Source of the DNA: Clostridium sp. 28_12 | GTDB taxonomy: Bacteria; Bacillota; Clostridia; TANB77; CAG-508 | Assembly (NCBI GenBank): GCA_001916055.1 | Contig: MNRR01000025.1 | Span: 13,433 to 45,432 of the forward strand | Direction of reading: 5' to 3' | DNA: 32,000 nucleotides | Shown here: positions 3,001 through 25,671 of the stretch, piece after piece | Layout of the letters: each line of letters opens with the position of its first letter | Numbering within the stretch: position 1 is the stretch's first letter | Position numbers and translations under genes: made by a program | The notes under the pieces: generated by a model | Databases searched by the model: none | What the model was told of the DNA's origin: nothing | Seen by the model: only the letters and a program-made list of their open reading frames with translations

Positions 3001-6000
3001 CATTATCTTTGTCTGTTTTATCTGTTAATTTTAATGTTGCATTTTTAAATTCTTCATCACTTATACTCCATGTACCTTTTCTTTTTATTTCTGTAGTTTC
3101 ACTTTCTAATGTTGCTTCATGCCAATGTTGACTACAGAATCTGTCTAGACGATTTGTACAATTATATCTTTTTCCATCTGAGCCATATGCTCCTATACCA
3201 ATCTCACTATGATTAGAACTACCAGTACCAATTATATATAATTTTCCTGGTTGTCTTAATCCTGGTTCAATCGTAAGTTGTTCTTCATAAGTTCTATTTG
3301 CTTGTACTGGGTTCATAGTTCCTACTAAACATACTGCAAGTACAGATACAAATAATGCTGCCTTTAATATTTTTCTATTTCTCCATATTAATATTGCTAA
3401 TCCTACTAATACTGCTAGTGTTCCTATTGTTATTCCTATTTTTCCTGCTAAACCTGTTGATACTCCTATTAATACTTGAGCTTGTGATGTATTATTATCG
3501 CTATTTTCGTCTTCAATTGCTTTATCATTACTGCTTATTCCTATTGTTGCTACATTTGTTGTTGTTCCTACATTATTAGCATTCATTGTTTTAGTTAATA
3601 CTAATGTTACTTCTTTACTTTCTCCTGCTTGTATGTTTTGTCCTGATAAACTATTTGTATATAAGCTTCCATCCTTTTCATACCAATCACTATTTAATTC
3701 TGATTTAAATGTCATTCCATCTGGTAATTTGTCTACTATTTGTGCTGCTTTTCCTGCTAATTCTCCATTGTTTGTTACTAACATCTTGTATTCTACTATT
3801 ACTGTTGCTCCATTCATTTGTTTTGAACGAATTTCTACTTTTGCAAATTGTTTATTATCATAGTCATATGTTTTTGTTTTTCCATCTTTTGTTTGCACTG
3901 TTATCTTGCTTATATATTTTTGGATTTCTAAATCAAATTTCTTATTTTCTACTAATCCAATATCTATATTTTCTAAATTTTCATTTGCTGTTAATGTATT
4001 TGTTAATCCTGCTGTCATTTTTTCTCCATTTATTGCTACATTCTTTGTTACAGCATCTGAATTCTTTGTTTCTATTACTCCCTCTTTTTGATATGCTGTT
4101 AATGAGTAATTATTTGTGTCATATAAGAATAATACTATATATTGTCCTTTTTCTACATTTTCGAAACTATATTTCCCTTCTGAATCTGTTTGTATTTTCT
4201 TTATTTGATTGTTTTCTTTTACAAATTCATTTTTCTTTGCATTATATAACATTACTGTTATTCCACTTAATGTCTTTTCATCTGTTGTTCTTTTTCCATC
4301 TTCATTTTCATCTATCCATGCAGTTCCTGATATTGTTACTTTTTCTTCGGTTGGTGTACTTGGATTATTTGGATTACTTGGGTTATCTGGATTGCTTGGA
4401 TTATCTGGATTACTTGGTTTATCTGGATTGCTTGGATTATCTGGATCTGTATTATTATCCTCATAATCATATTTCAATATTTTAGTTACTGCACTGGCAT
4501 CTTTTTCTTTTATCCAATCACCTTTTGCTGTTAATGTATTAGTAATTTGTTTTGTATCTGTTATCATTCTAGCTTTTGCTTTTATTATCATTGTAACAGT
4601 CTTACCTTCTGGTATTTGTAATTGTAAATCAATATTTGGAGCATCTTCTTCATCATATCCTTCTGGTATGTCCAAATTTGATAAATCAATTGTTTCTTGA
4701 GATTCTGTATATGTCTGAGAATCAAATTTGAATCCATACTCATCTGTAATTGTTTCAAATTTCATATTAAATTTGTTATATGTTGCACTTATTGGCTCTA
4801 ATTCTCTAGGGATAACATCTTGTATATCTACATTTGTATATGTTGCAAATCCTCCCCAAGTTTTTCCTATGTTTTTAATATTTACAGTATATGTTACCTC
4901 ATCATCCATTTTTAATTCAGTTTTGTCTACTGACATATCTACATTTACTGCCTCTACATAACCTTTCATTCTTGCTTCATTTGAACCATATGTAGCTATA
5001 CTATCTCCATATACTGTTGCAACACCATTCATTTCATATTCACGGCTCTTGCTCTCATCATAGTCCTTAAGCTCTCCCATAAGAACATAGTATTCTTCAC
5101 CTTGAATGTACTTACCTTCATCATTTAGTTTTGTAACCGGTAATGATTCTATTGTGTGTGTCCAAATATTTCCACTTACATTTGTTTCTTCGTCATCATT
5201 AACAGTTACTTCATTTAAGTTGAAATATTCTGATGCTTCGAAAGCAACATTTATATTTTTTAATTCTTTGTCTGTTAAATTTACAATTGTTACTCCGAAA
5301 ACCCATTCTCTTCTTGTTTTTCCTACTGCTGGTTGTACAAATACACTTATTTCTGCTTTTTTAACTGTATTATTAATAGTAAATTGATTTGCAGTTTGTC
5401 CATTTACTTGTACCGTATAATTTATCGCTGTTTGCTTTTCTTGTTCTCCATCTGCTAAATCTTTTACTTTTAACTCAATAAAATCTGTTTTTGTTTCTCC
5501 TGCTTTAACATCAAACTCTACTGTTACTTGTTTTTCTTTTTGTTCTACAAATTCATATCTCTTGCTGAATTCATAATAATTTTTATCTTCATGGTAAGTG
5601 AATCCATCATCATCTACTTTTTTTACATATACCATTTCATCTGGTACATTAACAATAACCTTTACTTTTTTATCAACATCTTCTGTATTTGAAACTTTAA
5701 TATTTTGTTTTACAATTTGTTTTTCATAAACATTTCCATTATTTTGTATATTAACTTTTCCAACTGTTTCTGTAACATCAACTTTTACACCACTTTGTAC
5801 TTGTGTAGTTTCTTCATTCTTAGCTACTGCTTGTACATTAAATTCTGGAACTATATTTACAACTTTATTTAAAAGTGTAACTTCTATTTCATTACTTTCT
5901 GTTGTTCCTGTCATTTCATTTGAATATGTTGTTTTTAATTTTTCAACTTTGTTTTCAATATCTTTAGCTACAGTAACTTTTAATGAAATTCTTACATTTG

Positions 6001-7483: not shown

Positions 7484-7524
7484 TGTCTTTTCCTCCCATT
7501 TTTTCTTATATAATTATATATAAT

Positions 7525-13077: not shown

Positions 13078-13106
13078 TAGACAAAATCAAAAATTTGTTG
13101 TATTAT
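13078..13106 (+). promoter_or_regulatory. Putative promoter of the plus-strand T4SS operon
   Basis: TAGACA (13078-13083), 17-nt spacer, TATTAT (13101-13106). Confidence 0.4.
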
Positions 13107-13139
13107 GTTTACGAAAAAGGCGGTGATTACTTTTTAATT

Positions 13140-13307
13140 ATGACTTTAAGTACTTTAATTAATATATTTTTTATCATTTATATTATTAGTTTGTTTATTA
13201 CTTTATATTCAATTTATACATTTTTTGATATTAAATTGTTTCATAATTTACAAGGTTCCAAATTAAAAATTAAACAAAAAAATGAAAACAGGAGTGATTT
13301 TTATTAA
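13140..13307 (+). CDS. Possible small membrane protein preceding the coupling protein
   Basis: ATG at 13140 within track ORF 13095..13307. MTLSTLINIFFIIYIISLFITLYSIYTFF is one TM helix followed by a basic tail. The SD-like GGCGGTGAT is rather far upstream. The stop overlaps the T4CP 5' end. Confidence 0.25.
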   Translation: MTLSTLINIFFIIYIISLFITLYSIYTFFDIKLFHNLQGSKLKIKQKNENRSDFY

Positions 13308-15003
13308 ACGTTTTATATTTACATGCATATTTGTATTATTACTTTCAATTTGTTCTTATCAATTTTTTTGTCCTATATATTTAGCTGATGAAATTATTGT
13401 TTCTTTTGGATTACATCCATCTGATATTTGTTATGATAACCCTATACTTTGGAAATATTTAAAAACAAGTTTCATATTTTTCTACCTATTCTCTAATGTA
13501 GTCATTTTAAACTCTTTAATTTCAAGATTTAATATTTTCAAAGGTTCTGAAAAACTTTCTAATAATTCAAGAATAAATTTAGAAAATAATTCAAATAGAA
13601 ATAACTCCTCCTTACAATTATTAATCGGTCAAAATATTTCTACAAATCAAAAAACTTACATTCCAGAATCTGGTTTGTATCAAAATTTTTTAATTACAGG
13701 GACAATTGGAACAGGAAAAACAAGTTCTGCTATGTATCCTTTTACGGAACAATTTTTTAAGTATAATTCTCTTAATCCAAACAATAAATTAGGTATTTTA
13801 ATATTAGATGTAAAAGGAAATTATTTCAAACAAGTCAAACAATTTGCTTCAAAATATCATTTAGAAAAAGATATACTAGAAATTGGCTTAGATTCAAAAA
13901 TCCGTTATAATCCATTGCATAAGCCAAATTTAACTCCTATAGTTTTAGCAAATCGTTTAAAAACTATTCTACTACTTTTTTCTGAAAATAATTCTGAATC
14001 ATTCTGGTTAGACAAAGCAGAACAAATTTTGGCAGAATGCATTAAATTGTGTAGATTATATAATAATGGTTATGTTACATTTATTGAACTTCACAAGCTT
14101 GTTATAGAACCAAATTATTATAAATCAAAAATTGAAGTGTTAAAAAAATTATTTTATGAATCAAAATTATCCCACAAACAAATATATGAATTAAACAGCG
14201 CCTTAGAATTTTTTGAAAAAGAATTTAATTCTCTTGACCCTAGAACTTTAGCAATTTTAAGGTCTGAAATTTCTCGAATAACAAATATTTTTGTCTCGGA
14301 TTATAAAATTTCTAAAATTTTTTGTCCAGAAAAAAAAGATTTAAATTTTAAGGGATTTTCTTCTATGATTAAAAATGGAAAAATTGTAGTTCTTAATATG
14401 AATATCGCTGAATATAAAAACCTCTCAAAAATAATTGCAGCATATTTAAAATTAGATTTTCAATCAGAAGTAATGTATAACTTATCACATTCGAAAATAA
14501 AAACTACAGTTTTTATATGTGATGAATATGCAGAATATGTTAATAAAACCGATGCTGACTTTTTTTCTCTTAGTCGTGAGGCAAAATGTATTAATATTGT
14601 TTCAACTCAAAGCTATTCTTCTTTGAAAAACTCTTTAAAAGATGAAAATGCCGTAAAAGTAATTATTCAAAATCTTATTAACAAAATCTGGTTTAGAACT
14701 GATGACATTTTCACAATTGAAGAAGCTCAAAAACAACTAGGAAAAGAAGAAAAAATTCACACATCTAGAGCAATTTCAGAAAATGCCAAAGAAACAAAAT
14801 TCAATTATATTACAAATTCTTTAAATTCTCAAAATTCGAGCATTACAGAAAGTTTTAATACATATACACAAAAAGATTTTATGTATGATACTAACTTTTT
14901 TACACAAGAATTGGAAACATTTTCAGCCCTTACTTTTTTATCTGATGGTTTTCATATAATAAGTCCGAGCAAATTGAAAATGCTTCCATATTTTAAAAAA
15001 TAG
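13282..15003 (+). CDS. Type IV coupling protein (VirD4/TraG-family T4CP)
   Basis: 573 aa with N-terminal TM segments. Walker A ITGTIGTGKTSS; LDVKGNY (VirD4-like DPKGE position); Walker B VFICDEYAEY. The first ATG (13282) has no SD. GGAGTG (13291-13296) sits 6 nt before an in-frame ATT at 13303, so the true start is uncertain. Confidence 0.75.
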   Translation: MKTGVIFIKRFIFTCIFVLLLSICSYQFFCPIYLADEIIVSFGLHPSDICYDNPILWKYLKTSFIFFYLFSNVVILNSLISRFNIFKGSEKLSNNSRINLENNSNRNNSSLQLLIGQNISTNQKTYIPESGLYQNFLITGTIGTGKTSSAMYPFTEQFFKYNSLNPNNKLGILILDVKGNYFKQVKQFASKYHLEKDILEIGLDSKIRYNPLHKPNLTPIVLANRLKTILLLFSENNSESFWLDKAEQILAECIKLCRLYNNGYVTFIELHKLVIEPNYYKSKIEVLKKLFYESKLSHKQIYELNSALEFFEKEFNSLDPRTLAILRSEISRITNIFVSDYKISKIFCPEKKDLNFKGFSSMIKNGKIVVLNMNIAEYKNLSKIIAAYLKLDFQSEVMYNLSHSKIKTTVFICDEYAEYVNKTDADFFSLSREAKCINIVSTQSYSSLKNSLKDENAVKVIIQNLINKIWFRTDDIFTIEEAQKQLGKEEKIHTSRAISENAKETKFNYITNSLNSQNSSITESFNTYTQKDFMYDTNFFTQELETFSALTFLSDGFHIISPSKLKMLPYFKK

Positions 15004-15055
15004 GTTTTATGAATTTCCAAAAAATTCAAATTTTATAAAAGGATGGTTTAAAAAA

Positions 15056-15373
15056 ATGAAAAAAATATTATGTATTGTTGTTTTAGCTACATATCTTATA
15101 CTTGCACTCTCTACCACTGTTTTTGGAGCCACACCAAAACTAGTTAATAAGTTAAATAGCGCTTTCGAAGACATAGAAAGTTGGATTATAAAAATATCTA
15201 CTCCTGCAGCTGCAGTCGCTGTTTGTACTGGGGCACTAATGAGAAAATTTAGCTTTGGTGATGAAGAAAAAATTAGAACAGGAAAAAAATTGATAACAGG
15301 TTCCTTATTTTCTTATGCTTTTATTTTAGCAATAGATTTAATATTATCTGCAATTCAGTCATTAATTGGTTAG
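15056..15373 (+). CDS. VirB2/TrbC-like pilin-type small membrane protein
   Basis: 105 aa with SD AAGGATGG. Signal peptide MKKILCIVVLATYLILALSTTVFGA, then two hydrophobic helices (AAAVAVCTGALM; GSLFSYAFILAIDLILSAI), the classic VirB2 layout. Confidence 0.6.
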   Translation: MKKILCIVVLATYLILALSTTVFGATPKLVNKLNSAFEDIESWIIKISTPAAAVAVCTGALMRKFSFGDEEKIRTGKKLITGSLFSYAFILAIDLILSAIQSLIG

Positions 15374-15381
15374 GTGATTAA

Positions 15382-16257
15382 ATGGAAAATAATTTTAATA
15401 TCACAGCTAACATCATCGAAGCAATTAATACAATTTTAAGCAATCTTTTTTCTTCAATTGATGAAAGTATCTATTCCATTCTTGATGATATAACCTTTGT
15501 TAATTCAGATATAATAAATGATTCATATTTTGAAAAAATCTTAGGAACTTCAACATCTAATGGAATTTTACTAATTGCAAATTCGTTATTATTTGGTGTT
15601 TTATTATATTATTCAATAAAATTATTATTTGCACATTTTACTTACCAACAAGTTGAAAACCCTAAACAATTTATATTTAAACTTATCATTTGGGGAATTT
15701 GCATTAATTCTTCTTATTTTTTTATAGAGCAATTTTTAAATATAATTTCAAATATTTCTTTAGCTATCAGAAGTATTGGCGAGGATTTATTCCATAAAAG
15801 TATTTGTTTTTCTGAATTAATTTCAGAACTAAATTCCAGCTTTAATACAGATTCTTCGCTTGACATTTTCTCCTTAGATGGCATAATAAAAGCTTCTCTT
15901 ACTACATCTTTATTAAATCTTGTATTTACATATTCTTTCAGATATGTAATGTTAAAAATATTTATATTACTTACTCCTTTTGCTATTTTGTCATTAGTTT
16001 TAGAAAGCACTTCTTGGTTCTTCAAGGCTTGGAGCAAAAATCTATTTTCATTGCTATTTATACAAATAATTGTTGCAATTGTATTATTAATACTATTTTC
16101 TATGGATTATTCTTCAAATAATTTATTAACCAAATTTATATATATAGGTGCAATGTATACTTTAATAAAATCAAATTCTTTTGTGCGTGATTTTATAGGT
16201 GGTGTTTCCACAACTTTTACTCAAAATGTGGAAAACATTTTCAAAAAAACACATTAA
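15382..16257 (+). CDS. VirB6/TrbL-like polytopic membrane protein
   Basis: 291 aa with several predicted TM helices (ILLIANSLLFGVLLYY, LIIWGICINSSYFFI, IFILLTPFAILSLVL, LFSLLFIQIIVAIVLLILF). Sits between the VirB2-like and VirB3-like genes. Confidence 0.6.
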   Translation: MENNFNITANIIEAINTILSNLFSSIDESIYSILDDITFVNSDIINDSYFEKILGTSTSNGILLIANSLLFGVLLYYSIKLLFAHFTYQQVENPKQFIFKLIIWGICINSSYFFIEQFLNIISNISLAIRSIGEDLFHKSICFSELISELNSSFNTDSSLDIFSLDGIIKASLTTSLLNLVFTYSFRYVMLKIFILLTPFAILSLVLESTSWFFKAWSKNLFSLLFIQIIVAIVLLILFSMDYSSNNLLTKFIYIGAMYTLIKSNSFVRDFIGGVSTTFTQNVENIFKKTH

Positions 16258-16282
16258 TTATATTTTAGAAAGGAGTTTTTAA

Positions 16283-16567
16283 ATGAAATTTATATTTCCG
16301 CAAAATTATAATTTTAAAAATAAACTTTTAGGAATAATTGATTATTCTACAGCTTTTTTTAATATCTTTTGGTATGTAATTATTTTTATACTATTACATT
16401 TTTTTATTAAAAACTGGAATATTAAAATTTTTATTTTTATATCCTTATGTTTTCCTCTAACTATTTTTAGCATTGTTGGTTTTAATGGTGAACCTATTTT
16501 ATATGTATTTAATTATATTTTAAAATATATTTTTCGTCCTAAATTATATTTATTTAAAAAATATTAA
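16283..16567 (+). CDS. VirB3-like TcpE/PrgI-family membrane protein
   Basis: 94 aa with SD AAAGGAG. N-terminal FPQNYNFKNKLLGIIDYS, then two TM helices: the layout of TcpE/PrgI proteins, which normally directly precede VirB4. Confidence 0.6.
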   Translation: MKFIFPQNYNFKNKLLGIIDYSTAFFNIFWYVIIFILLHFFIKNWNIKIFIFISLCFPLTIFSIVGFNGEPILYVFNYILKYIFRPKLYLFKKY

Positions 16568-16574
16568 AACTTCT

Positions 16575-16627
16575 GAAAATACTACTTACTTAAATTAGTA
16601 AGTAGTGTTTTCGGAAATTTTTTTATT
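16575..16627 (+). terminator. Rho-independent terminator ending the T4SS plus-strand operon
   Basis: 16-bp stem GAAAATACTACTTACT / AGTAAGTAGTGTTTTC (one G-T pair), followed by a TTTTTTT run. Confidence 0.7.
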
Positions 16628-16647
16628 ATTTTTATTTCATTTTTCAC

Positions 16648-16676
16648 TTGATTTTTCTTCTTAAATTATATATAAT
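16648..16676 (+). promoter_or_regulatory. Putative promoter of the DnaD-like/DnaI-like operon
   Basis: TTGATT (16648-16653), 17-nt spacer, TATAAT (16671-16676). Confidence 0.45.
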
Positions 16677-16753
16677 TCTTCTTAGTTTATTATAGGGGGT
16701 TTAGTTTAAAAATGTTTTAAACTATTTATTCCTTAAGGGGGAGGAATGATACA

Positions 16754-17809
16754 ATGAAATTAGAACAACCGGAATTGCCATTATTATTCTCAGAAACTGT
16801 CGTTCCTGACATCTTTTTTGCAGAACACTTATCACAAATGCCTTCAAGTAGTGTTAAAGTTTATTTATATATAATATTTTTATCTAAATATAAAAAAGAT
16901 ATAAAATTAAATGATTTATCAAAAAAATTAGCATTACCTTTAAAAGATATAAATGATTCTATTACATATTTGGAATCAAATGATTTAATTATAAGAAAAA
17001 CAACTGGATATGTAGTAGCAAACCTACAAGAACAAGTTTTAAACAAATTATATAAGCCAAACTTAACAATTTCGGCGGAAAAAGTAGCTGATGTTGCTAA
17101 AAATAAAGAGCGTGCAAAAGTAATTGAGCATATAAATAATGCATATTTCCAAGGTATAATGGGACCATCTTGGTATAACGATATTGATTTGTGGTTTACA
17201 AAGTATAATTTCGATGACCAGGTTATGATTGCTCTTTTTGATTACTGTTTTAAACGTTCTGCCCTTCACAAAAAATATGTGCAAACAGTAGCAGAAGCAT
17301 GGGGAAATAACAAGATTCAAACTTGGAATGACCTGGATTTATATTATCAAAAACAAGAAAAATTAGTAAAAATTAAAAAATCAATTGCAAAAAAACTTGG
17401 AAAACAGTCGCTTACACAATACGAAGAGGCATATATAGAAAAATGGGTTATTGACTTCGGTTATGACTTAAATATTATTGAAATAGCCTTAAAAAGAAGT
17501 GTATTCAAGTCAAACCCAACATTCGAATATTTCAATAATATAATAACAAATTGGCATGATAGAAATCTAAAAACACCAGATGAAATTCTTGCATTTATAG
17601 AGCAAAGAAATAAACAAAATAAAGAAACTAAAAAGTTAGAAAAACAAGTTGCAAAAGCATCTTTTGACCAAAGACAATATGATAACTTAGCATTTTTATA
17701 TGCAAACCAAGGAAATTCTCCAATGGGATTTCCAGATAATTCAAATTATACTGAGTCAAAAATATCTGCATCACTATATTCTAACATAGAAGGAGATATA
17801 AATGTCTAA
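16754..17809 (+). CDS. DnaD-domain replication initiation protein (Bacillus DnaB/DnaD-like, two DnaB_2-type repeats)
   Basis: 351 aa with SD GGGGGAGGAA. Two related segments (..NNAYFQGIMGPSWYNDIDLWFTKYNFDDQVMIALFDYCFK.. and ..YEEAYIEKWVIDFGYDLNIIEIALKRSV..FEYFNNIITNWHD) resemble DnaD/DnaB C-terminal repeats. Confidence 0.7.
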   Translation: MKLEQPELPLLFSETVVPDIFFAEHLSQMPSSSVKVYLYIIFLSKYKKDIKLNDLSKKLALPLKDINDSITYLESNDLIIRKTTGYVVANLQEQVLNKLYKPNLTISAEKVADVAKNKERAKVIEHINNAYFQGIMGPSWYNDIDLWFTKYNFDDQVMIALFDYCFKRSALHKKYVQTVAEAWGNNKIQTWNDLDLYYQKQEKLVKIKKSIAKKLGKQSLTQYEEAYIEKWVIDFGYDLNIIEIALKRSVFKSNPTFEYFNNIITNWHDRNLKTPDEILAFIEQRNKQNKETKKLEKQVAKASFDQRQYDNLAFLYANQGNSPMGFPDNSNYTESKISASLYSNIEGDINV

Positions 17810-18812
17810 CGAAATTTTATCAGATTTATTATTAGAATATGACCAAAAAAAACGCAAAGCAGAACTTGATTTAGAAAAACGTAAACAAGAACTTTATGAA
17901 AAAGTTCCTCGACTCCAAGAAATTGAAGATTCTCTAAATACCTTTGCAATTACAACAACTAAAAATATCTTAAATGGAAATACAACTTCATTTAATGAAT
18001 TAACTTCAAAAGTTGAAAACCTAAAAAAAGAAAAAGAAAAAATTTTACAAAATAACGATATCCCAAAAGAATTTTTGGAACCTTATTATGAATGTAAAAT
18101 TTGTAAAGATACCGGATATATTCAAACACAAAATTCAGCATCTGCAATGTGTCCATGTTTAAAGCAAAAATTATTAGATATATCTTATAATAAATCTAAT
18201 ATATCAAATTTAAGCAAGGAAAATTTCGAAACATTTAATATTAATATTTTTTCAGATTCAATAAACTCTGAAAAATATAGATTAAATATTTCACCTCGTA
18301 ATAATATTATTAATATAAAATCAAAATGTATTGAATTTGTTAATAATTTTGATAATCCTGATACTAAAAACTTATTATTCACAGGTAATACAGGACTTGG
18401 AAAAACTTTTATGAGTAACTGCATTGCAAATGAATTAATTAAAAAAGGAAAAAACGTACTTTATCAAACGGCTCCTGTTTTATTAGAAACCGTAATTGAT
18501 AATAAAATGAATAAATATAAAAATTCCAAACAAGATAATTTTTATAAAAACGTTTTAGAAGCTGATTTATTAATCATTGATGATCTTGGAACCGAATGTT
18601 TAAATAGTATGAAATTAAGTGAATTATTTACAATTTTAAATACGCGTTTACTTAATTTAAATAATAAAGTAACTAAAACAATTATTTCTACTAATTTAGG
18701 TATAAATAATATTTTTAGAAATTATGAAGAACGTATTGGGTCTCGTATTGCTGGATTCTATGATATTTATTATTTTTTCGGTGATGACTTAAGACTTAGT
18801 ACAAAACATTAA
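17802..18812 (+). CDS. DnaI/DnaC-type AAA+ helicase loader
   Basis: 336 aa; overlaps the upstream gene by 8 nt. Zn-ribbon-like CKICKDTGY..CPC; Walker A FTGNTGLGKTF; Walker B LLIIDDLGTE. Confidence 0.75.
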   Translation: MSNEILSDLLLEYDQKKRKAELDLEKRKQELYEKVPRLQEIEDSLNTFAITTTKNILNGNTTSFNELTSKVENLKKEKEKILQNNDIPKEFLEPYYECKICKDTGYIQTQNSASAMCPCLKQKLLDISYNKSNISNLSKENFETFNINIFSDSINSEKYRLNISPRNNIINIKSKCIEFVNNFDNPDTKNLLFTGNTGLGKTFMSNCIANELIKKGKNVLYQTAPVLLETVIDNKMNKYKNSKQDNFYKNVLEADLLIIDDLGTECLNSMKLSELFTILNTRLLNLNNKVTKTIISTNLGINNIFRNYEERIGSRIAGFYDIYYFFGDDLRLSTKH

Positions 18813-18875
18813 ATTAGCCAAAAAGCATAAAAATAAAATATTATTTTATCTTGCTTTTTATATAAAATTTTCTAC

Positions 18876-18908
18876 AAAAAAGATTGTCAGATAAAGACAA
18901 TCTTTTTT
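18876..18908. terminator. Bidirectional terminator between the loader gene and gyrA
   Basis: 13-bp perfect stem aaaaaagattgtc / gacaatctttttt with a 7-nt loop. Confidence 0.7.
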
Positions 18909-18944
18909 ATATTTTTATATATAAAGAAAATTTTTCATGTTTTC

Positions 18945-21401
18945 TTATTTTTCATCTTCTTCAACCTCTGCTATTTCTGGAGTCAATGTTTCCATACTAA
19001 CCACTTTTCCTCCATCTGTTGTTCTCATTAAAGTAACACCTTGCGTTGAACGTCCTAAAACACTTATATCTTTAACTTTAAGTCTTATTATTGTACCTTT
19101 ATCTGTTATAAGCATTACATCTTCATCATCTGTTGCAATCCTTGCACCAACTAGTTTTCCTGTTTTTTGAGTTACTTTATATGTTATTACTCCTTTACCT
19201 CCACGAATTTGTACTCTATATTCATCAAGTTCTGTTCTCTTACCAAATCCATTTTCAGTAATTGCAAGCAATGTTGCTTTTCCTCCTGATATTATTGATT
19301 CCATTCCAATTACTTCATCATCCTCATCAATTCTAATTCCTATAACACCTTGAGAAACTCTACCAATTGGACGTACGTCTTTTTCATCAAAAGTAATACA
19401 CATACCATTTCTTGTAACAAGTACAACATTGTCTTCCCCATCTGTTAGTCTTACAGCAATAAGTTCATCATCTTCTTTTAATGTTATTCCTTGTAAACCT
19501 GTTTTACGAGCAGAATTATATTCAGCAAGTGCAGTTTTCTTTATTAAACCATTCTTTGTTGCCATTAATAAATATTTACCTTCTGCAAAATTTTGAATTG
19601 GTATAACTGCAGAAACTTTTTCTCCTGCGTCTAAACTTAATAAGTTTACAATTGCTGTTCCCCTAGCAGTTCTACCAGCTTCTGGAACTTCGTATCCTCT
19701 TAATTTGTATAATTTACCTTTATTTGTAAAGAATAATATTGTATCATGAGTTGAAGCTGTAAATATTTGTTTTACAAAATCTTCTTCTCTTGTTGCAATT
19801 CCTGTTATTCCTTTTCCTCCACGTTTTTGGCTTCTATATGTGTCAATTGGCATCCTCTTAATATATCCAAAATGTGTTAAGGCAATAACTGTTTGTTCCT
19901 CTTTTATTAAGTCATCTATATCTATTTCACCTTCAGCAGCAACAATTTTTGTTTTTCTATCATCTCCAAATTTATCTCTTATTTCAATAAGTTCTTCTTT
20001 TATGATATCAAATACTAATTTTTCACTATTTAAAATAGCTCTTAAATGTTCGATTAATTCCATTAATTGTTTATATTCTTCTTCAATTTTTTCACGTTGC
20101 AAACCAGATAATGTTTTTAATCTCATATCCAATATTGCTTGTGCTTGAATATCTGTTAAACCAAATCTTTCAATTAATCTTTCCTTAGCATCATCATAAG
20201 AGCTACGGATTATTGCTATTACTTCATCAATATTATCAATTGCGATTCTTAGTCCTTCTAATATATGTGCTCTTGCAAGCGCTTTGTCTAAATCAAATTG
20301 TGTTCTTCTTAAAATTACAGTTTTTCTATGTTCTATATAACAATCTAAACATTGTCTTAATGTTAAAACTTTTGGTTCTCCATCAACAAGTGCTAACATG
20401 ATAACCCCAAATGTATCTTGCATTTGAGTATTTTTGTATAATTGATTTAATACAACTTGAGGATTAGCATCTCTTTTTAATTCCATAACAATTCTTACTT
20501 TTTCTTTTCTGTCAGATTCGTCACGCATTTCAGAGATACCCTCTATTCTCTTTTCTCTTGCAAGTCTTGCAATATTTTCAATTAAACGAGCTTTATTTAC
20601 TTGATATGGTAATGATGAAACAATTATTCTTTGTCTGTTTCCACTCATTTCTTCAATTTCAGCTTCAGCTCTCATTATTATTTTTCCTCTTCCTGTTTTA
20701 TAGGCTTCTTTAATTCCTTCTAATCCTAGAATTAATCCACCTGTTGGAAAATCTGGTCCTTTAATTATTTGTATTAATTCATCATCTGTTACATTATCAT
20801 CATCAATTATTTTTATAATACCATTTATTACTTCTGTTAAATTGTGTGGTGGTATATTTGTTGCCATACCTACGGCAATCCCTGATGAACCATTAACTAA
20901 TAATGCTGGTATTTTTGCTGGTAAAACAGTTGGTTCTTGCAATCTGTCATCATAGTTTGGCATAAAATCTACTGTATTTTTTTCAATATCTACTAACATT
21001 TGCTCTGCTATTTTTGACATTCTTGCTTCAGTATACCTCATTGCGGCAGCTCCATCACCATCTATTGAACCGAAATTACCATGTCCATCAATCAACATAT
21101 ATCTCATTGAAAAATCTTGTGCCATTCTTACCATTGCATCATATACAGAAGCATCACCATGTGGATGATATCTTCCTAATACAGACCCAACTGTATTAGC
21201 ACATTTCCTGTATGGCTTGTCTGATGTAATTCCATCTTCATGCATTGCATACAATATTCTTCTATGTACAGGTTTTAAACCATCTCTTACATCTGGCAAT
21301 GCTCTTGATACAATTACACTCATTGCATAATCAATGTAGGCAGTTCTCATTTCTTCTTCAATGTCTCTTTTTATTACATTTCCGTCTTGTCTTTCTTCCA
21401 T
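18945..21401 (-). CDS. gyrA: DNA gyrase subunit A
   Basis: 818 aa. YAMSVIVSRALPDVRDGLKPVHRRILYAM, HPHGD and AAAMRYTEARM (catalytic Tyr). C-terminal beta-pinwheel repeats and an acidic tail. Confidence 0.97.
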   Translation of the reverse strand: MEERQDGNVIKRDIEEEMRTAYIDYAMSVIVSRALPDVRDGLKPVHRRILYAMHEDGITSDKPYRKCANTVGSVLGRYHPHGDASVYDAMVRMAQDFSMRYMLIDGHGNFGSIDGDGAAAMRYTEARMSKIAEQMLVDIEKNTVDFMPNYDDRLQEPTVLPAKIPALLVNGSSGIAVGMATNIPPHNLTEVINGIIKIIDDDNVTDDELIQIIKGPDFPTGGLILGLEGIKEAYKTGRGKIIMRAEAEIEEMSGNRQRIIVSSLPYQVNKARLIENIARLAREKRIEGISEMRDESDRKEKVRIVMELKRDANPQVVLNQLYKNTQMQDTFGVIMLALVDGEPKVLTLRQCLDCYIEHRKTVILRRTQFDLDKALARAHILEGLRIAIDNIDEVIAIIRSSYDDAKERLIERFGLTDIQAQAILDMRLKTLSGLQREKIEEEYKQLMELIEHLRAILNSEKLVFDIIKEELIEIRDKFGDDRKTKIVAAEGEIDIDDLIKEEQTVIALTHFGYIKRMPIDTYRSQKRGGKGITGIATREEDFVKQIFTASTHDTILFFTNKGKLYKLRGYEVPEAGRTARGTAIVNLLSLDAGEKVSAVIPIQNFAEGKYLLMATKNGLIKKTALAEYNSARKTGLQGITLKEDDELIAVRLTDGEDNVVLVTRNGMCITFDEKDVRPIGRVSQGVIGIRIDEDDEVIGMESIISGGKATLLAITENGFGKRTELDEYRVQIRGGKGVITYKVTQKTGKLVGARIATDDEDVMLITDKGTIIRLKVKDISVLGRSTQGVTLMRTTDGGKVVSMETLTPEIAEVEEDEK

Positions 21402-21437
21402 AGTTTTCTACCTCTTTCTTTTTTCTTTTACTATTGT

Positions 21438-21466
21438 ATTATATTACACTAACGCTTATTTTGCAA
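21438..21466 (-). promoter_or_regulatory. Putative dedicated gyrA promoter
   Basis: Minus strand: TTGCAA (21466-21461), 17-nt spacer, TATAAT (21443-21438), about 35 nt upstream of the gyrA ATG. Confidence 0.55.
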
Positions 21467-21567
21467 GGATTTTAGCAACTTTCTTTAAAATATTTAATTA
21501 AAATTTCCAATTGAATCCAGTATATTTTTTATATTTATGTATATCTTAAATATATGCTTTTTGCTTA

Positions 21568-21596
21568 TTATCTGTTAGCAAATTTCGCTATATAAT
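21568..21596 (+). promoter_or_regulatory. Putative XRE-gene promoter with a near-palindromic operator in the spacer
   Basis: TTATCT, 17-nt spacer, TATAAT (21591-21596). The spacer contains TAGCAAATTTCGCTA (21576-21590), a 15-nt palindrome with one mismatch. Confidence 0.3.
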
Positions 21597-21622
21597 TGTT
21601 AAAAAATTTGTGAGGTGAACAT

Positions 21623-21973
21623 ATGCAATTTAATCAAGAAGACATTGATATTGGAGAAAGATTACGCGGAATAAGAGAAAATATGCACATGACAAGAGAA
21701 CAATTTTCTGAAAAAATTGATATTACTGATTCTTTCTTAGGACAAATTGAAAGAGGTGAACGTTCATTAAGTGTAAAAACATTAAAGAAAGTTGTAAAAT
21801 ATGCTGGCGTTTCTGCGGACTATTTATTATTTGGCAATCAAAATAATAATGAAGTAATTCAAAAGATAAATAATATTTTAACAGTAAATTCTGATATAAC
21901 ATCTGATTTTATTTATCATATTGTTATGTGTTCAAATGATTTTTGTAAAAAAATATTAGATGAAAATAAATAA
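21623..21973 (+). CDS. XRE-family helix-turn-helix transcriptional regulator
   Basis: 116 aa with SD GAGGTGA. IGERLRGIRENMHMTREQFSEKIDITDSFLGQIERGERSLSVKTLKKV is a typical HTH_3/Cro-CI motif. Confidence 0.8.
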   Translation: MQFNQEDIDIGERLRGIRENMHMTREQFSEKIDITDSFLGQIERGERSLSVKTLKKVVKYAGVSADYLLFGNQNNNEVIQKINNILTVNSDITSDFIYHIVMCSNDFCKKILDENK

Positions 21974-21980
21974 TTATATG

Positions 21981-22022
21981 AAAATTTAAGAATTTTTTAT
22001 TATTTAGAAATTCTTAAATTTT
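21981..22022. terminator. Bidirectional terminator between the XRE gene and the 230-aa ORF
   Basis: 15-bp stem aaaatttaagaattt / aaattcttaaatttt with a 12-nt loop. Confidence 0.55.
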
Positions 22023-22715
22023 TTATGCCAAATTTTTCGCTAATCTTTTTTCATCTTCTGCAATATTAAAATTTTTTCCATTATTTTTAATTAATTCATG
22101 AAGTGCTTTTACTTGTTTGGTTTCGTTTATTAAATTTTCTATCGGAACTATTTTTTCATATTGTTTTTCTATCTTTTTATATGCTTTCTCCATTCCATCA
22201 AAATCTTTGTTATTATAGCACTTTTTCCATTCACTCACTTCGCTTTCCATCTTTTTTACATATTCAACTTGTTCATCTAATTCTTTTTTTATATTATTTG
22301 ATACATTATTTAATAATACATTTTTTCCATTTTTTATTACATTTTTTATATCTCTATTTATATATCCTTTTTTGTATGCACTATTTATTACATTATCTAA
22401 TACATCAGAAATGCTATCAACAATCCCACCATTTCCTATTGCAATCTTTACTTGTTCAATATTTTCAAAATTTCCTGTAAATATTCCAGCCGTACTCTTT
22501 CCAAAATTTACAGCTGAATTTATTGCAGTATCTATTCCTGTTTTTAATCCATTATTTAATAAAGAATTTTTTATATCAATAACTTGATTTTCTATTAGAT
22601 CTGGTAATATTGCTCTTAGTCCAATATCAATTGCATAATTAATTGTTTTTCCAAAAGTATTATTAAAAAAATTATTTTTTTCATTTTCTATATTTAATCT
22701 ATTATTTATTTCCAT
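22023..22715 (-). CDS. Hypothetical protein, translationally coupled to VirB4
   Basis: 230-aa ORF overlapping the VirB4 stop by 14 nt. Gly/Asn/Ile-rich N-terminal half (GLKTGIDTAINSAVNFGKSTAGIFTG..GNGGIVDSISDVLDNVINS) and a Lys/Glu-rich, probably coiled-coil C-terminal half. I recognise no family. Confidence 0.55.
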   Translation of the reverse strand: MEINNRLNIENEKNNFFNNTFGKTINYAIDIGLRAILPDLIENQVIDIKNSLLNNGLKTGIDTAINSAVNFGKSTAGIFTGNFENIEQVKIAIGNGGIVDSISDVLDNVINSAYKKGYINRDIKNVIKNGKNVLLNNVSNNIKKELDEQVEYVKKMESEVSEWKKCYNNKDFDGMEKAYKKIEKQYEKIVPIENLINETKQVKALHELIKNNGKNFNIAEDEKRLAKNLA

Positions 22716-24492
22716 TAATATTTTTCCTTTCTATAATTTTTCTTTCAAAATCACTAGCTTCTATACTTATTAGAACATGTTCATCTCCAACAAAAGTCAA
22801 ACATTCTCCTCTTCTTAAGGATTTTATTTCCATTTTTTCTTTTTCTGATAAATTAGAATATTGTGCTAATAATTTTATATTTTCTTCTTCCAGAGAAAAA
22901 AATGTTTTTATACTAGAATTATTTAAAATACTTTTTCCATAAGTTCCATTTTCTAAGCTAAATAAATCCGAAATATCTTGTGTTATTGCTACACTACTTC
23001 CTCCATATTTTCTTATTGTTTTAAATATTTTATAAATAAATTTTGCTACTTCTTTATTAGAAGTTACTCCTATTAATCTCCAAATTTCATCTAAATAAAT
23101 TGCCTTTTTTATTTTTCTATTTATTTTTATTTTATCCCAAAATAATTCAGTAAATAAATACATTCCATATTTCATATTTTCTTCACCTAGTTCATAAACA
23201 TCTGCAATAATTAATTTTTTATTTAATTCAATATTTGTATAATTATTGAAAAATTTTAATGATCCCTTTATAAATGGTATTAATTTAACTTTAAATTTTC
23301 TTGTTCTTTCATCATCGAAATTATTATATAAATCTTCCAAAATCGGCATATCTTTTGTAGTTTTAAATTTTCCTTTTTTATATAATGTTTTGTCATTAAA
23401 TGTAATATTTTTCTTTTTATATGTTTGAATTAATTTTTCTTCTAATATTGCTTTTTCCTCTTCATTTAATTCTCCAAAAATCAAATTAAAAAAACCAATT
23501 AATTTTCCTATTTTAGTTGCTAAATATCCATGTTCATTTTCTTCTATACTTTCTTTTCTAATATCAAAAATATTTATATAATTTTCAGAAGTAGGTCCTA
23601 TTTTAATAATAGTTCCTCCTAAATTTTGTGCAATATTGTTATATTCTCTTTCTGGATCTATTACGTATTGTTCAATTCCTAATAAAGTATTTCTTAAAAT
23701 TAACAATTTAGTATAAAACGATTTTCCTGCTCCACTTGTTCCGAAAATACACATATTAGCATTTTTATATCTATTTGTATTGTATCTATCTATTAATATA
23801 AGTGAATTATTATACATATTATTTCCTACATAAATCCCCTCTTCTTCAACGATTGAAGAGGAAATAAATGGATATGTACTTATTAATCCAGATGTAAGAA
23901 TATTCCTCTTTCCTATTATTTTTAACTCCTCTTTATTTTCCATCAATGGTAAACATGAAATAAATAATTGTTCTTGCCTAAAGTTCGTCCTTCTTGTTTG
24001 TAGCCCTTTACTCTGTAAAATACCTTCGATTTTATCTAAATTATATTCTAGTTCTTTTTTATTAGTAGAAAATAATGTTAAATAAATATAAAGAAAATAC
24101 ATATCTTCATTATTTATCTGAAGTTCTTTTCTTATATATTTAGCATCATTATATGTAAATGCTGCAATATCTATATCTTGCCTACTTTCATTTGATTGTT
24201 TTAATTCAACTCCTACATTTCCAATATTATAGGTTAATTCTTTTATAACTTTTGAAGTTTCTTTTTTTTCATAAAAAACAGAAATATTCATATTAATACT
24301 AGTTTCTATTAATGACTTTAAAATTAAATCATTATATTCTCTATAATAATTTACAATTGTTATTCCTGAATAAAAATAATCGTCTATTTCTAAAAATCTT
24401 GGATTATTTAAATTTATATATGATGGTGATATAAAATCTTTTTCGTCAAAAAAACCTTCTTTTATTTCATTTTTTTCTTTTTTATTTATCAT
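22702..24492 (-). CDS. VirB4-family conjugation ATPase, C-terminal (ATPase) portion of a split gene
   Basis: 596 aa. RNILTSGLISTYPF, Walker A IFGTSGAGKSFYTK, Walker B AIYLDEIWRLIG, GGSSVAITQD. Resembles Gram-positive VirB4 proteins (Tn916 Orf16 / TcpF / CD1110 type) from memory. The ATG at 24492 has no SD. AGGAGGTG (24523-24530) sits 6 nt before an in-frame ATA at 24516. Confidence 0.85.
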   Translation of the reverse strand: MINKKEKNEIKEGFFDEKDFISPSYINLNNPRFLEIDDYFYSGITIVNYYREYNDLILKSLIETSINMNISVFYEKKETSKVIKELTYNIGNVGVELKQSNESRQDIDIAAFTYNDAKYIRKELQINNEDMYFLYIYLTLFSTNKKELEYNLDKIEGILQSKGLQTRRTNFRQEQLFISCLPLMENKEELKIIGKRNILTSGLISTYPFISSSIVEEEGIYVGNNMYNNSLILIDRYNTNRYKNANMCIFGTSGAGKSFYTKLLILRNTLLGIEQYVIDPEREYNNIAQNLGGTIIKIGPTSENYINIFDIRKESIEENEHGYLATKIGKLIGFFNLIFGELNEEEKAILEEKLIQTYKKKNITFNDKTLYKKGKFKTTKDMPILEDLYNNFDDERTRKFKVKLIPFIKGSLKFFNNYTNIELNKKLIIADVYELGEENMKYGMYLFTELFWDKIKINRKIKKAIYLDEIWRLIGVTSNKEVAKFIYKIFKTIRKYGGSSVAITQDISDLFSLENGTYGKSILNNSSIKTFFSLEEENIKLLAQYSNLSEKEKMEIKSLRRGECLTFVGDEHVLISIEASDFERKIIERKNINGNK

Positions 24493-24528
24493 TAATTTTC
24501 TTATTTTGTTTTCTATTTATTACACCTC

Positions 24529-25065
24529 CTATTCTAAAAATTTTTTTAAATTGAAAAATGAAAACAAAATATTTTTAGTTTCCTCTTTCTTACATTCTAA
24601 TACAATATTTCCACATCTACTTAAACAATCTTTAATTTTAAAATATTTTTCATTTAAATCTTGAATTATATTTTCTTCTAAATTTTCTGAATTGTTCATT
24701 ATAATTAAATAAATATTTTTTGATGCAGATTTGTTTCTATCATTTTTCTCTTTAATAAATTTTATATATTCTTCTGAATACTTTTTTAAAATATTATTTT
24801 TTGTTATTTGTGAAATTTTTTGAATATTTTCCATATGATTACTTAAATCTTCTTTTTTACTTTGAATTAAAATTTGTATATCAAAATTACATGTTTTTAA
24901 AAAAACTTTATAAGAATTTAAAATTGACTCTTTTTCTAATTGAGTTTTAAGATTATAATTTATAGGAATTACTCTTAGTATTTTTATATACTTATTCTTT
25001 TTTAATTTAATGATTCCTTTATCTAAAATTTTTTCTATCGAAATCCATTTTTGTATTGATTTTAT
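24529..25065 (-). CDS. VirB4-family N-terminal domain fragment (separate ORF, apparently non-ATG start)
   Basis: The track lists only 24529..24834, from the first ATG. The frame stays open up to a TGA at 25072-25074. The extra region reads KRIKSIQKWISIEKILDKGIIKLKKNKYIKILRVIPINYNLKTQLEKESILNSYKVFLKTCNFDIQILIQSKKEDL, which looks like the conserved VirB4 N-terminus. AGGAGGTG (25073-25080) lies 7 nt before an in-frame ATA at 25065. There is no in-frame ATG/GTG/TTG upstream of 24834. Confidence 0.6.
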   Translation of the reverse strand: MKSIQKWISIEKILDKGIIKLKKNKYIKILRVIPINYNLKTQLEKESILNSYKVFLKTCNFDIQILIQSKKEDLSNHMENIQKISQITKNNILKKYSEEYIKFIKEKNDRNKSASKNIYLIIMNNSENLEENIIQDLNEKYFKIKDCLSRCGNIVLECKKEETKNILFSFFNLKKFLE

Positions 25066-25111
25066 TCTTTTTCACCTCCTAATTTTTTCCTTTATGATCC
25101 ATTGCTTACTT

Positions 25112-25140
25112 ATTATACACTGTTTTGCTTTGATTTGCAA
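25112..25140 (-). promoter_or_regulatory. Putative strong promoter of the VirB4 operon
   Basis: Minus strand: TTGCAA (25140-25135), 17-nt spacer, TATAAT (25117-25112), about 30 nt upstream of the AGGAGGTG SD. Confidence 0.55.
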
Positions 25141-25671
25141 GAAAAATCGTTCGACACGATTCGACAAAAAATTTTTTCAAAAAATTTTTATTTTTTTGAA
25201 TATAAAAAAACTTTTTGCACATAATAAGTGTGTAAGGTTAATATCAGTTGAGTAAAGAGTATTAATAGATTAAAAATTAGTTTATTAATATTCGAGCAAA
25301 GATGTATATTGGTTTATTTTTATGGATTAATATATGTCGGCGATAAGAATATATTATGTATATGCAAGCTATATTTTTATTTAAATTTTCAAGGATTATT
25401 TTTATATTTTATATATGGTTAAATTATATGTAATATATTTGAACTAAGATTATTCTTGTATTATATGGGATTATTAGTATGTCCCTCTGGGATGAATATA
25501 GTTTCTACTAGTGCATTTGTAGTCGAACGACTGATTAATATATGTGGTATATAGTTTATTTGTATAGCAATATACATTAGATTAAACTACTACATATATT
25601 AGTCTGAGTTAAGATTGATATTGGCTTTATAGATAATAGGATTCCACAAGTTTTGGAATCCTATTAAATTT

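Follow-up and report, generated by a model that had tools for sequence, protein, structure and literature searches.

A chromosomal type IV secretion gene set in two modules around gyrA in an uncultured lineage of gut Clostridia

Gene content of the locus

The window analyzed here is a 32,000-nucleotide stretch of the Clostridium sp. 28_12 genome (contig MNRR01000025.1) with a GC content of 27%. It encodes parts of a type IV secretion system (T4SS), among them a VirB4-family ATPase and a VirD4-type coupling protein (T4CP). The genes form two modules that flank gyrA and lie about 5-19 kb from dnaA and the replication origin (oriC). Judged by their conservation among relatives, they likely represent a functional, vertically inherited, and co-opted T4SS, which probably serves the cell itself and not a mobile element. 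Genetic code 4 (TGA read as Trp), considered in view of the low GC content, was rejected, as long open reading frames (ORFs) exist under table 11 and no main genes are merged by table 4; the standard genetic code applies. The features of the two modules are the following:

13078..13106, plus strand: promoter of module 1 (-35 TAGACA, 17-nt spacer, -10 TATTAT; 10 of 12 consensus positions matched)
13140..13307, plus strand: conserved small ORF of 55 aa with a single transmembrane helix, the invariant motif FHNLQGSKLK, and a tail of basic residues
13282..15003, plus strand: VirD4-type T4CP (Pfam TrwB_AAD_bind 3e-9, 36.6 bits, cutoff 20.5; TraG-D_C 2e-7, 31.1 bits, cutoff 22)
15056..15373, plus strand: VirB2/TrbC-like pilin of 105 aa (T4SS_pilin in 36/36 orthologs, best 3e-6; TrbC in 16/36)
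15382..16257, plus strand: VirB6/TrbL-like polytopic membrane protein of 291 aa with at least 4 transmembrane helices (TrbL in 6/38 orthologs, best 2e-3)
16283..16567, plus strand: PrgI/VirB3-like small membrane protein of 94 aa with 2 transmembrane helices (PrgI in 6/44 orthologs)
16571..16616, plus strand: intrinsic terminator closing module 1 (20-bp stem and T run)
22023..22715, minus strand: p230, a soluble, all-helical orphan protein, its start overlapping the VirB4 ATPase gene's end
22702..24516, minus strand: B4C, the VirB4 ATPase proper, 596 aa (NCBIfam conju_CD1110 1e-88, positions 184-732 of 752; Pfam P-loop_TraG and AAA_10)
24529..25065, minus strand: B4N, a TrsD-like VirB4 N-terminal-domain protein of 178 aa (conju_CD1110 model positions 2-168, E=6e-11)
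25112..25166, minus strand: promoter of module 2 (-35 TTGCAA at 25140-25135, 17-nt spacer, -10 TATAAT at 25117-25112) with a direct repeat upstream

To obtain orthologs, one genome was scanned for each GTDB species; relatives turned up in 296 genomes, of which the best 80 were used for the comparison of loci. The VirB4 of these 80 relatives was 70-91% identical, and their hosts include human, rabbit, chicken, sheep, goat, and mouse.

Module 1

Module 1 (13140-16567, plus strand) runs in the order small ORF, T4CP, VirB2-like pilin, VirB6-like protein, and PrgI/VirB3-like protein. The sequence-only reading had described the latter four as a plus-strand operon ending in a terminator, which is borne out by Pfam and ortholog matches and by the terminator at 16571-16616. 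Its account of the gene content was otherwise sound, but the conserved 55-aa ORF before the T4CP had been overlooked. Terminator-like sites were found six times in the window scan, with 1.9 expected.

The T4CP has two N-terminal transmembrane helices, a Walker A motif (GTIGTGKT), and a Walker B motif (FICDEY). Its ATG at 13282 has no Shine-Dalgarno (SD) sequence, while an ATT at 13303 sits 8 nt after GGAG. One related locus (L009) has a stop codon at the position matching the SD-less ATG, and the relatives indicate that the true start is probably ATT 13303 and not ATG 13282. The 55-aa ORF lies directly 5' of the T4CP in at least 15 species, and its stop overlaps the ATT start. In several species it has no ATG. 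A longer, 70-aa reading of this ORF had no family match, and a role as a small T4SS subunit or as a MifM/SecM-like leader peptide is speculative.

The VirB2-like protein consists of a signal peptide followed by two hydrophobic helices with a charged loop between them, and its mature part is invariant in the alignment. While the VirB6-like and VirB3-like proteins of the window singly had no Pfam match, TrbL and PrgI were the sole recurring Pfam families among their respective orthologs, both below the gathering cutoffs and with E values around 1e-3. Profile searches of the VirB6-like and VirB2-like proteins against PDB sequences gave nothing meaningful, and tblastn of the VirB6-like protein against 72,556 plasmids gave no match. 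Taken over both modules, the profile searches that had been suggested as a check supported the assignment of VirD4, VirB4, VirB2, VirB3, and VirB6, with VirB3 and VirB6 remote but consistent.

Module 2

As the sequence-only reading had stated, VirB4 lies on the opposite strand, 6.1-8.5 kb from module 1 and beyond the dnaD-like, dnaI-like, and gyrA genes; family matches confirm this. Its further claim of one intact VirB4 ORF at 22702-25065 was mistaken, as two genes are present. Module 2 (25065-22023, minus strand) accordingly runs in the order B4N, B4C, and p230. B4C corresponds to the C-terminal three quarters of a canonical VirB4 and carries a Walker A motif (GTSGAGKS) and a Walker B motif (IYLDEIW), which were kept in 80/80 and 77/80 orthologs, respectively. 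An artificial fusion of B4N and B4C scored 340 bits against a curated cutoff of 325, while B4C alone missed it with 298 bits. A profile search of B4N against PDB sequences gave nothing meaningful.

In the window, B4N and B4C lie in the same frame by chance, separated by TAG..TAA TAA. They were separate ORFs in 75/75 species and in different frames in 53 of these, by which a recent nonsense mutation in VirB4 is ruled out. An overlap of 7 nt between the two genes is frequent; three species have them about 1.1 kb apart. B4N starts at ATA 25065, 9 nt past a perfect AGGAGG (full site AGGAGGTG at 25080-25073), and no ATG, GTG, or TTG occurs in its 178-codon frame before residue 78. The start candidates of B4C are ATG 24492, which has no SD sequence, and ATA 24516, located 8 nt past AGGAGG. 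In several related loci (L011, L012, L019, and L024), the N-terminus of B4C (orthologs of 24492-24430) is a hypervariable low-complexity tail rich in Lys, Asn, and Ile, the length of which differs by tens of residues among sister species.

The third gene, p230, lies between B4C and gyrA in 59/59 loci. Homologs occur in two more distant chromosomal relatives, L093 (2e-54) and L094 (1e-22), while the profile search found no counterpart in mobile relatives. Neither Pfam nor PDB nor fold comparisons gave a match that was recurring or significant, and the AlphaFold2 model, which is of low confidence (pLDDT 60), had no Foldseek match against PDB at E<=0.001.

Promoters and translation starts

Near-consensus promoters had been claimed for both halves of the gene set. 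As a class these are at chance, with 106 promoter-like hexamers found across the window against 102 expected, so promoters were judged by cross-species conservation instead. Two of them, at 13078-13106 and 25140-25112, stood this test. Both hexamers of the module 1 promoter are kept in the five sister species for which the alignment extends to the region, and the module 2 promoter forms a conserved block with its repeat in 12 species. This direct repeat, TGTCGAA-N3-TGTCGAA, lies upstream of the -35 element at 25166-25160 and 25156-25150 with a 10-bp period. Within the window it is limited to the module 2 promoter, the T4CP promoter having no such repeat, and it is probably the binding site of a dedicated regulator.

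Strong SD sequences were present as claimed for the VirB3-like, VirB6-like, B4N, and B4C genes, but not at the T4CP ATG. A survey of SD-anchored starts in the orthologs (loci L009-L088), based on ATA 25065-25063 for B4N, ATA 24516-24514 for B4C, and ATT 13303-13305 for the T4CP in the window, found ATT, ATA, or ATC in 9/10 T4CP, 53/71 B4N, and 34/59 B4C genes. No canonical start occurred anywhere in the open frame in 34 of the non-AUG cases of B4N and 28 of those of B4C. Among the control genes, such starts were counted in 0/15 VirB2-like, 0/32 VirB6-like, 2/44 VirB3-like, 2/55 p230, 1/47 dnaD, 0/51 dnaI, 0/59 gyrA, 1/60 gyrB, 0/58 recF, and 0/22 helix-turn-helix (HTH) genes. The three ATPase-family genes thus systematically begin at AUU or AUA behind strong SD sequences, which is a new observation and, as a systematic use on exactly these genes, an unusual regulatory signature.

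Gene callers shorten B4N to 101 aa or overlook it entirely (as in L094) because of these starts, and the system is therefore likely under-annotated in catalogues of gut metagenome-assembled genomes (MAGs). Owing to the non-AUG starts together with the operator-like repeat of module 2, expression appears to be throttled or regulated. That the starts limit the amount of ATPase, or tie its synthesis to the status of initiation factors, is speculation.

Neighborhood, synteny, and selection

The genes between and around the modules are housekeeping genes for the most part:

16754..18812, plus strand: dnaD-like gene (DnaB_2 domains; Pfam DnaB_2 3e-25) and dnaI/dnaC-like helicase-loader gene (NCBIfam PRK06835 337 bits, cutoff 215)
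18945..21401, minus strand: gyrA, housekeeping gene between the modules (80-98% identity over 80 loci)
21623..21973, plus strand: XRE-family HTH regulator, convergent with p230 (Pfam HTH_3 4.5e-13)

The right end of the window is the origin region, with dnaA, dnaN, recF, and gyrB all on the minus strand; in the 6.7 kb to the right, dnaA is followed by the divergent rpmH, rnpA, yidD, yidC, jag, mnmE, mnmG, and rsmG. The dnaD-like/dnaI-like pair has its own promoter-like site and terminator and consists of interleaved housekeeping genes that are no parts of the T4SS. The HTH gene is limited to closer relatives and occurs in about 19-22 loci.

Both modules occupied the same positions in essentially all species, in answer to the question raised by the sequence-only reading of whether they are sporadic or degraded in relatives; they are neither. 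The common order in the 80 GTDB species representatives was dnaA-dnaN-recF-gyrB-B4N-B4C-(0-5 kb)-p230-(HTH)-gyrA, followed on the other strand by dnaI-dnaD, the VirB3-like, VirB6-like, and VirB2-like genes, and the T4CP. The genes gyrB and B4N occurred together in 55/55 loci, and recF, dnaN, and dnaA were found with them in 54/55. The dnaI, dnaD, VirB3-like, and VirB6-like genes came after gyrA in 21/22 loci, the exception being L053, where an insertion is present and the T4CP block lies inverted on its far side. The full set also surrounds gyrA in the distant relative L093 (332-kb contig, 24% GC), whose GyrA and VirB4 are 68 and 48% identical, respectively. There the T4CP-VirB2-VirB6-VirB3-dnaD block has the opposite orientation relative to gyrA, and dnaD/dnaI are still linked to module 1. 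The helicase-loader pair and module 1 are neighbors, yet separate units.

Two further rearrangements were observed. In L049, the dnaD-dnaI pair alone is inverted (plus strand, 16309-18300) relative to the adjoining VirB3-like and VirB6-like genes, and in L010 a transposase of the DDE insertion-sequence type (rve-like, 18140-19075) lies between dnaD and the VirB3-like gene. The locus tolerates insertions between transcription units without gene loss.

Ratios of nonsynonymous to synonymous substitution (dN/dS) were calculated after Nei-Gojobori against eight sister species with dS of 0.4-1.5. They amounted to 0.12 for the T4CP, 0.08 for the VirB2-like, 0.10 for the VirB6-like, and 0.115 for the VirB3-like gene, and to 0.14 and 0.11 for B4N and B4C, respectively, while p230 was looser than the T4SS genes with 0.32. 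Reference values were 0.07 for dnaD, 0.16 for dnaI, and 0.03 for gyrA. The T4SS genes (0.08-0.14) are under purifying selection comparable to that on dnaD and dnaI.

Scattered remains of an integrative and conjugative element (ICE), decaying and functionless, had been offered as an alternative by the sequence-only reading. The gene set does lie in two pieces, VirB4 is interrupted by same-frame stop codons in the window, several genes have no canonical start, and relaxase, integrase, and hydrolase are missing from the locus. The comparative data reject this explanation, which can hardly be correct: VirB4 is split throughout the 75 species, mostly in other frames and often with overlaps typical of translational coupling, the low dN/dS is accompanied by intact ORFs and motifs in about 80 species and by conserved promoters, and the same layout recurs in a lineage as distant as L093. 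Because of the conserved synteny, the low dN/dS, and the conserved Walker motifs, the locus is best read as a vertically inherited functional gene set that is neither an ICE nor its remains. The domesticated T4SS put forward by the sequence-only reading in place of a self-transmissible ICE is supported by the synteny, the dN/dS, and the absences described below.

Contamination of MAGs is an unlikely source of the conservation, given that the genes share contigs of up to 1.3-1.7 Mb with dnaA, gyrB, and gyrA, to which they are contiguous. In NCBI, the exact VirB4-like protein is named 'Clostridium sp. CAG:356'; contigs that bear it reach 1.68 Mb. An identical T4CP was found in 476 blocks of a metagenome collection, with identical gene order in 8/8 contigs shown; those contigs with a source in the record name come from human-gut samples.

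At the other end of the window, a gene at 1-7513 (minus strand) that extends past the left edge codes for a surface protein of giant size, about 2990 aa, with SdrD_B/CLIPPER-type repeats according to precomputed Pfam matches of a sister contig. It could be an adhesin, and it is followed by PGA_cap and VanW/G5/PG_binding_4 genes.

Absent components and mobile relatives

No relaxase, integrase, peptidoglycan hydrolase, or VirB8-like protein was found among the scanned proteins of the 32-kb window, as had been noted from the sequence, nor in the 6.7 kb to its right, where a relaxase, integrase, or hydrolase would have pointed to an ordinary ICE. No relaxase was recurrent around the modules in the 80 syntenic loci. 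The VirB1-like hydrolase and VirB8-like (PrgL/TcpC/TraM) protein of MPF_FATA-type systems (MPF, mating-pair formation) were thus missing among the window proteins. With no linked relaxase, no integrase, and no variable presence, but a fixed place in essentially all species, the locus does not in these respects have the properties of a self-transmissible ICE.

The origin of the gene set was traced by an exhaustive search of 50%-identity representatives for VirB4 homologs, and the named relatives among the nearest matches were Clostridia. Down to about 45-51% identity, short forms with a length of about 600 aa still occur. A fused VirB4 (849 aa) is first seen at 45% identity, in L092, and relatives at 36% or less are mostly 770-1100 aa long, although some short forms persist. 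L092 (35% GC), an element of metagenomic origin, is the closest mobile relative. It contains a conjugation module of canonical make-up, in the order MobC/NikA, a 1121-aa PF03432 relaxase, a 106-aa gene, VirB4, T4SS_pilin, T4CP, a peptidase of the M23 family, a 316-aa protein, and ParA. Its proteins are about 31-43% identical to those of the window (42.5% for the T4CP). Profiles built from orthologs of the window proteins matched it as follows:

VirB3-like profile: 106-aa gene directly upstream of the fused VirB4, E 3e-17
B4N profile: fused VirB4, E 1e-42
B4C profile: fused VirB4, E 1e-143
VirB2-like profile: T4SS_pilin protein, E 1e-13
T4CP profile: T4CP, E 1e-107
VirB6-like profile: 316-aa protein, E 6e-16

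This order also confirms that the VirB3-like gene canonically stands directly before VirB4, as the sequence-only reading had it. The same profiles were used on a Vescimonas plasmid, where the VirB3-like profile matched the PrgI part of a PrgI-VirB4 fusion (1e-6) and the VirB6-like profile a protein of the T4SS cluster (3e-9). The best plasmid VirB4 was 33% identical to the window protein. The best VirB4 models were those of the CD1110 (Tn1549/CTn-type) and Mycoplasma ICE families, which, going by the CONJScan prototypes, presumably belong to MPF_FATA; the MPF_FA class suggested earlier is therefore probably wrong.

Conjugative DNA transfer in trans has to be weighed against a function for the cell itself. 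A relaxase and oriT located elsewhere in the genome or on mobilizable elements would then use the T4SS for mobilization of the chromosome or of integrative mobilizable elements, with genes exchanged among members of the clade. The docking of relaxase-DNA complexes is the classical task of T4CPs, and the T4CP of this locus is kept under purifying selection. In L092, the same T4SS parts occur with a relaxase and MobC, and in many more distant species a ParA/TadZ-like ATPase gene adjoins VirB4; ParA-like proteins (VirC1, gonococcal ParA) help in DNA substrate recruitment in some T4SSs. Against this stand the missing relaxase in the window, its flank, and the 80 syntenic loci, and the hydrolase of the mobile relative, which is not at the locus. 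Order-level vertical fixation at oriC would moreover be unusual if the benefit went to mobile DNA, and conjugation in trans, although a serious rival explanation, is considered unlikely overall.

The TadZ/CpaE-like protein combines an N-terminus of receiver-like type with an ATPase domain resembling ParA/MinD. It is encoded between B4C and p230 in 41 more distant species (e.g., L078:12050-13150), and its gene has been lost at the locus in the subclade of the window. Downstream of VirB4, TadZ-like and CpaF-like (T2SSE) ATPase genes occur in L094 (11839-15360) and L095 (5066-9795), with the CpaF-like gene adjacent in the former and about 3 kb further in the latter. In related lineages there is thus a physical link between the T4SS and Tad-pilus genes. 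The literature reports a conserved Tad cluster in TANB77, an uncultured order (PMC11680825). The conserved pilus cluster that Kim et al. 2024 describe for TANB77 is of the Tad type and not the locus described here.

The chromosomal, ancestor-like L093 and the mobile L092 together permit a reconstruction of the steps of domestication, which would comprise the loss of relaxase, MobC, and hydrolase, the split of the two modules around gyrA, and the gain of p230.

Proposed function

In the favored explanation, a conjugation apparatus of Firmicutes MPF_FATA-like type would have been fixed in the chromosome of uncultured, low-GC, small-genome gut Clostridia and would now be a vertically inherited host function. 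The VirB3-like protein, the two-piece VirB4, the VirB6-like protein, and the T4CP would form a cytoplasmic-membrane translocon, while the Sec-exported VirB2-like protein may form a surface filament or conduit. The T4CP would pick the cargo for contact-dependent export to neighboring cells. This substrate and direction, T4CP-dependent export to neighboring cells, are a tentative best guess, held with rather low confidence. A protein or other non-relaxase cargo is favored because no relaxase is linked in about 80 species while the T4CP is constrained, and because of the analogy with the T4SS of Patescibacteria and the rvh system of Rickettsiales. The proximity to oriC may simply raise gene dosage.

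Several points weigh against the favored explanation. The VirB3 and VirB6 assignments are based on remote similarity, with Pfam E values around 1e-3 in a minority of orthologs; the L092 and Vescimonas profile matches strengthen them. No cell-wall-crossing component was identified at the locus, and the gene for a relaxase, VirB1-like hydrolase, or VirB8-like protein could lie in another part of the genome. The non-AUG starts could be a sign of very low expression. The substrate is pure inference, and the T4CP of the patescibacterium Ca. Southlakia epibionticum is itself reported to be non-essential (PMC12102498), so that the analogy leaves the role of the coupling protein unfixed.

A more far-reaching explanation, which we regard as rather improbable, is that a whole order-level lineage (possibly GTDB TANB77) depends on a Patescibacteria-like T4SS near the origin for obligate contact with a partner bacterium, with uptake from or delivery to it. 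The system would be gated post-transcriptionally by the AUU/AUA initiation on the three ATPase-family genes and by a membrane-inserted leader peptide overlapping the T4CP start. If true, such obligate contact would help to explain why the lineage is uncultured.

No T4SS description for this lineage was found in the literature searched. The lineage, of which no member is cultured, has reduced genomes and occurs commonly in the guts of humans and animals; the abundance of TANB77, the order to which it possibly belongs, has been linked to immunotherapy response. The locus gives a concrete starting point for testing the interaction of these bacteria with neighboring cells.

Comparison with known systems

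That conjugation machinery can be co-opted to serve the host is well established for diderm pathogens and, since 2025, for Patescibacteria. The rvh system is vertically inherited across an order with reduced genomes, lies in scattered islands, retains VirD4 without a relaxase, and serves non-conjugative secretion. It resembles the window in being vertical, scattered, and without relaxase while VirD4 is kept, but differs as a diderm MPF_T-type system with VirB7-B11, duplicated components, and no sequence affinity. The dispersed islands of rvh genes are also mentioned in the literature on Patescibacteria (PMC12102498).

Helicobacter pylori ComB is likewise chromosomal, relaxase-less, and arranged in two operons, which could suggest a role in DNA uptake (competence) comparable to that of ComB or of the Ced/Ted importers of archaea, the latter mentioned in PMC12102498; an organism with a reduced genome might scavenge DNA or nucleotides. 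Such a function is very unlikely. ComB, a DNA importer of diderm type and unrelated sequence, works without a coupling protein, whereas the T4CP here is conserved and constrained, and uptake is less likely because of its presence. Nor did sequence affinity link the locus to components of ComB or Ced; conjugative VirB4 families were the best models.

Tn1549/CTn-type elements (VirB4 of the CD1110 family, T4CP of the CD1115 family) provide the best-scoring VirB4 models for the window, and L092 shares homologs of VirB3, VirB4, VirB2, T4CP, and VirB6 (E 1e-13 to 1e-143). Unlike the window, these elements and L092 have a fused VirB4, a relaxase, MobC, and a hydrolase (M23 in L092, with no counterpart in the window), have no p230, and are mobile and sporadic. 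In staphylococcal systems of the pGO1/pSK41 type (TrsD and TrsE), a small protein homologous to the VirB4 N-terminal region, TrsD, is likewise encoded separately upstream of the ATPase, a form that is widespread in Patescibacteria (PMC12102498). In contrast to the window, these are plasmid conjugation systems with a relaxase, while B4N is matched by the N-terminus of the CD1110-family model.

The closest analogue is the T4SS of Patescibacteria, which originates from monoderm MPF_FATA-type conjugation and whose genes are indispensable to epibiotic growth in Ca. Southlakia epibionticum (PMC12102498). Both systems have VirB4 with a separate TrsD-like protein, PrgI/VirB3-like and VirB6-like proteins (in the window by remote similarity), and a VirB2-like T4SS_pilin. 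Relaxase and VirB1 are mostly absent in Patescibacteria and are not found at the window locus. In Patescibacteria the T4CP is often away from virB4, the genes are often near dnaA/dnaN, a position proposed to raise gene dosage, and they are inherited vertically in reduced genomes (PMC12102498). The window shows this whole repertoire, from VirB4, TrsD-like protein, PrgI, VirB6, and VirB2-like protein to the missing relaxase and the position near the origin, as a functional resemblance with no claim of membership in the clade. It differs in phylum, the records here being labelled Clostridia or Clostridium sp. CAG, in a single pilin gene as opposed to arrays, in its fixed place around gyrA by dnaD/dnaI, and in p230, and its lineage shows AUU/AUA starts on the ATPase genes, such starts not having been reported for the Candidate Phyla Radiation. 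While a chromosomally co-opted, relaxase-less T4SS is of a kind already known, the two modules fixed around gyrA, the orphan p230, and the AUU/AUA initiation on the ATPase genes are unusual traits, and the locus would be a clear case of such a system in monoderm Firmicutes.

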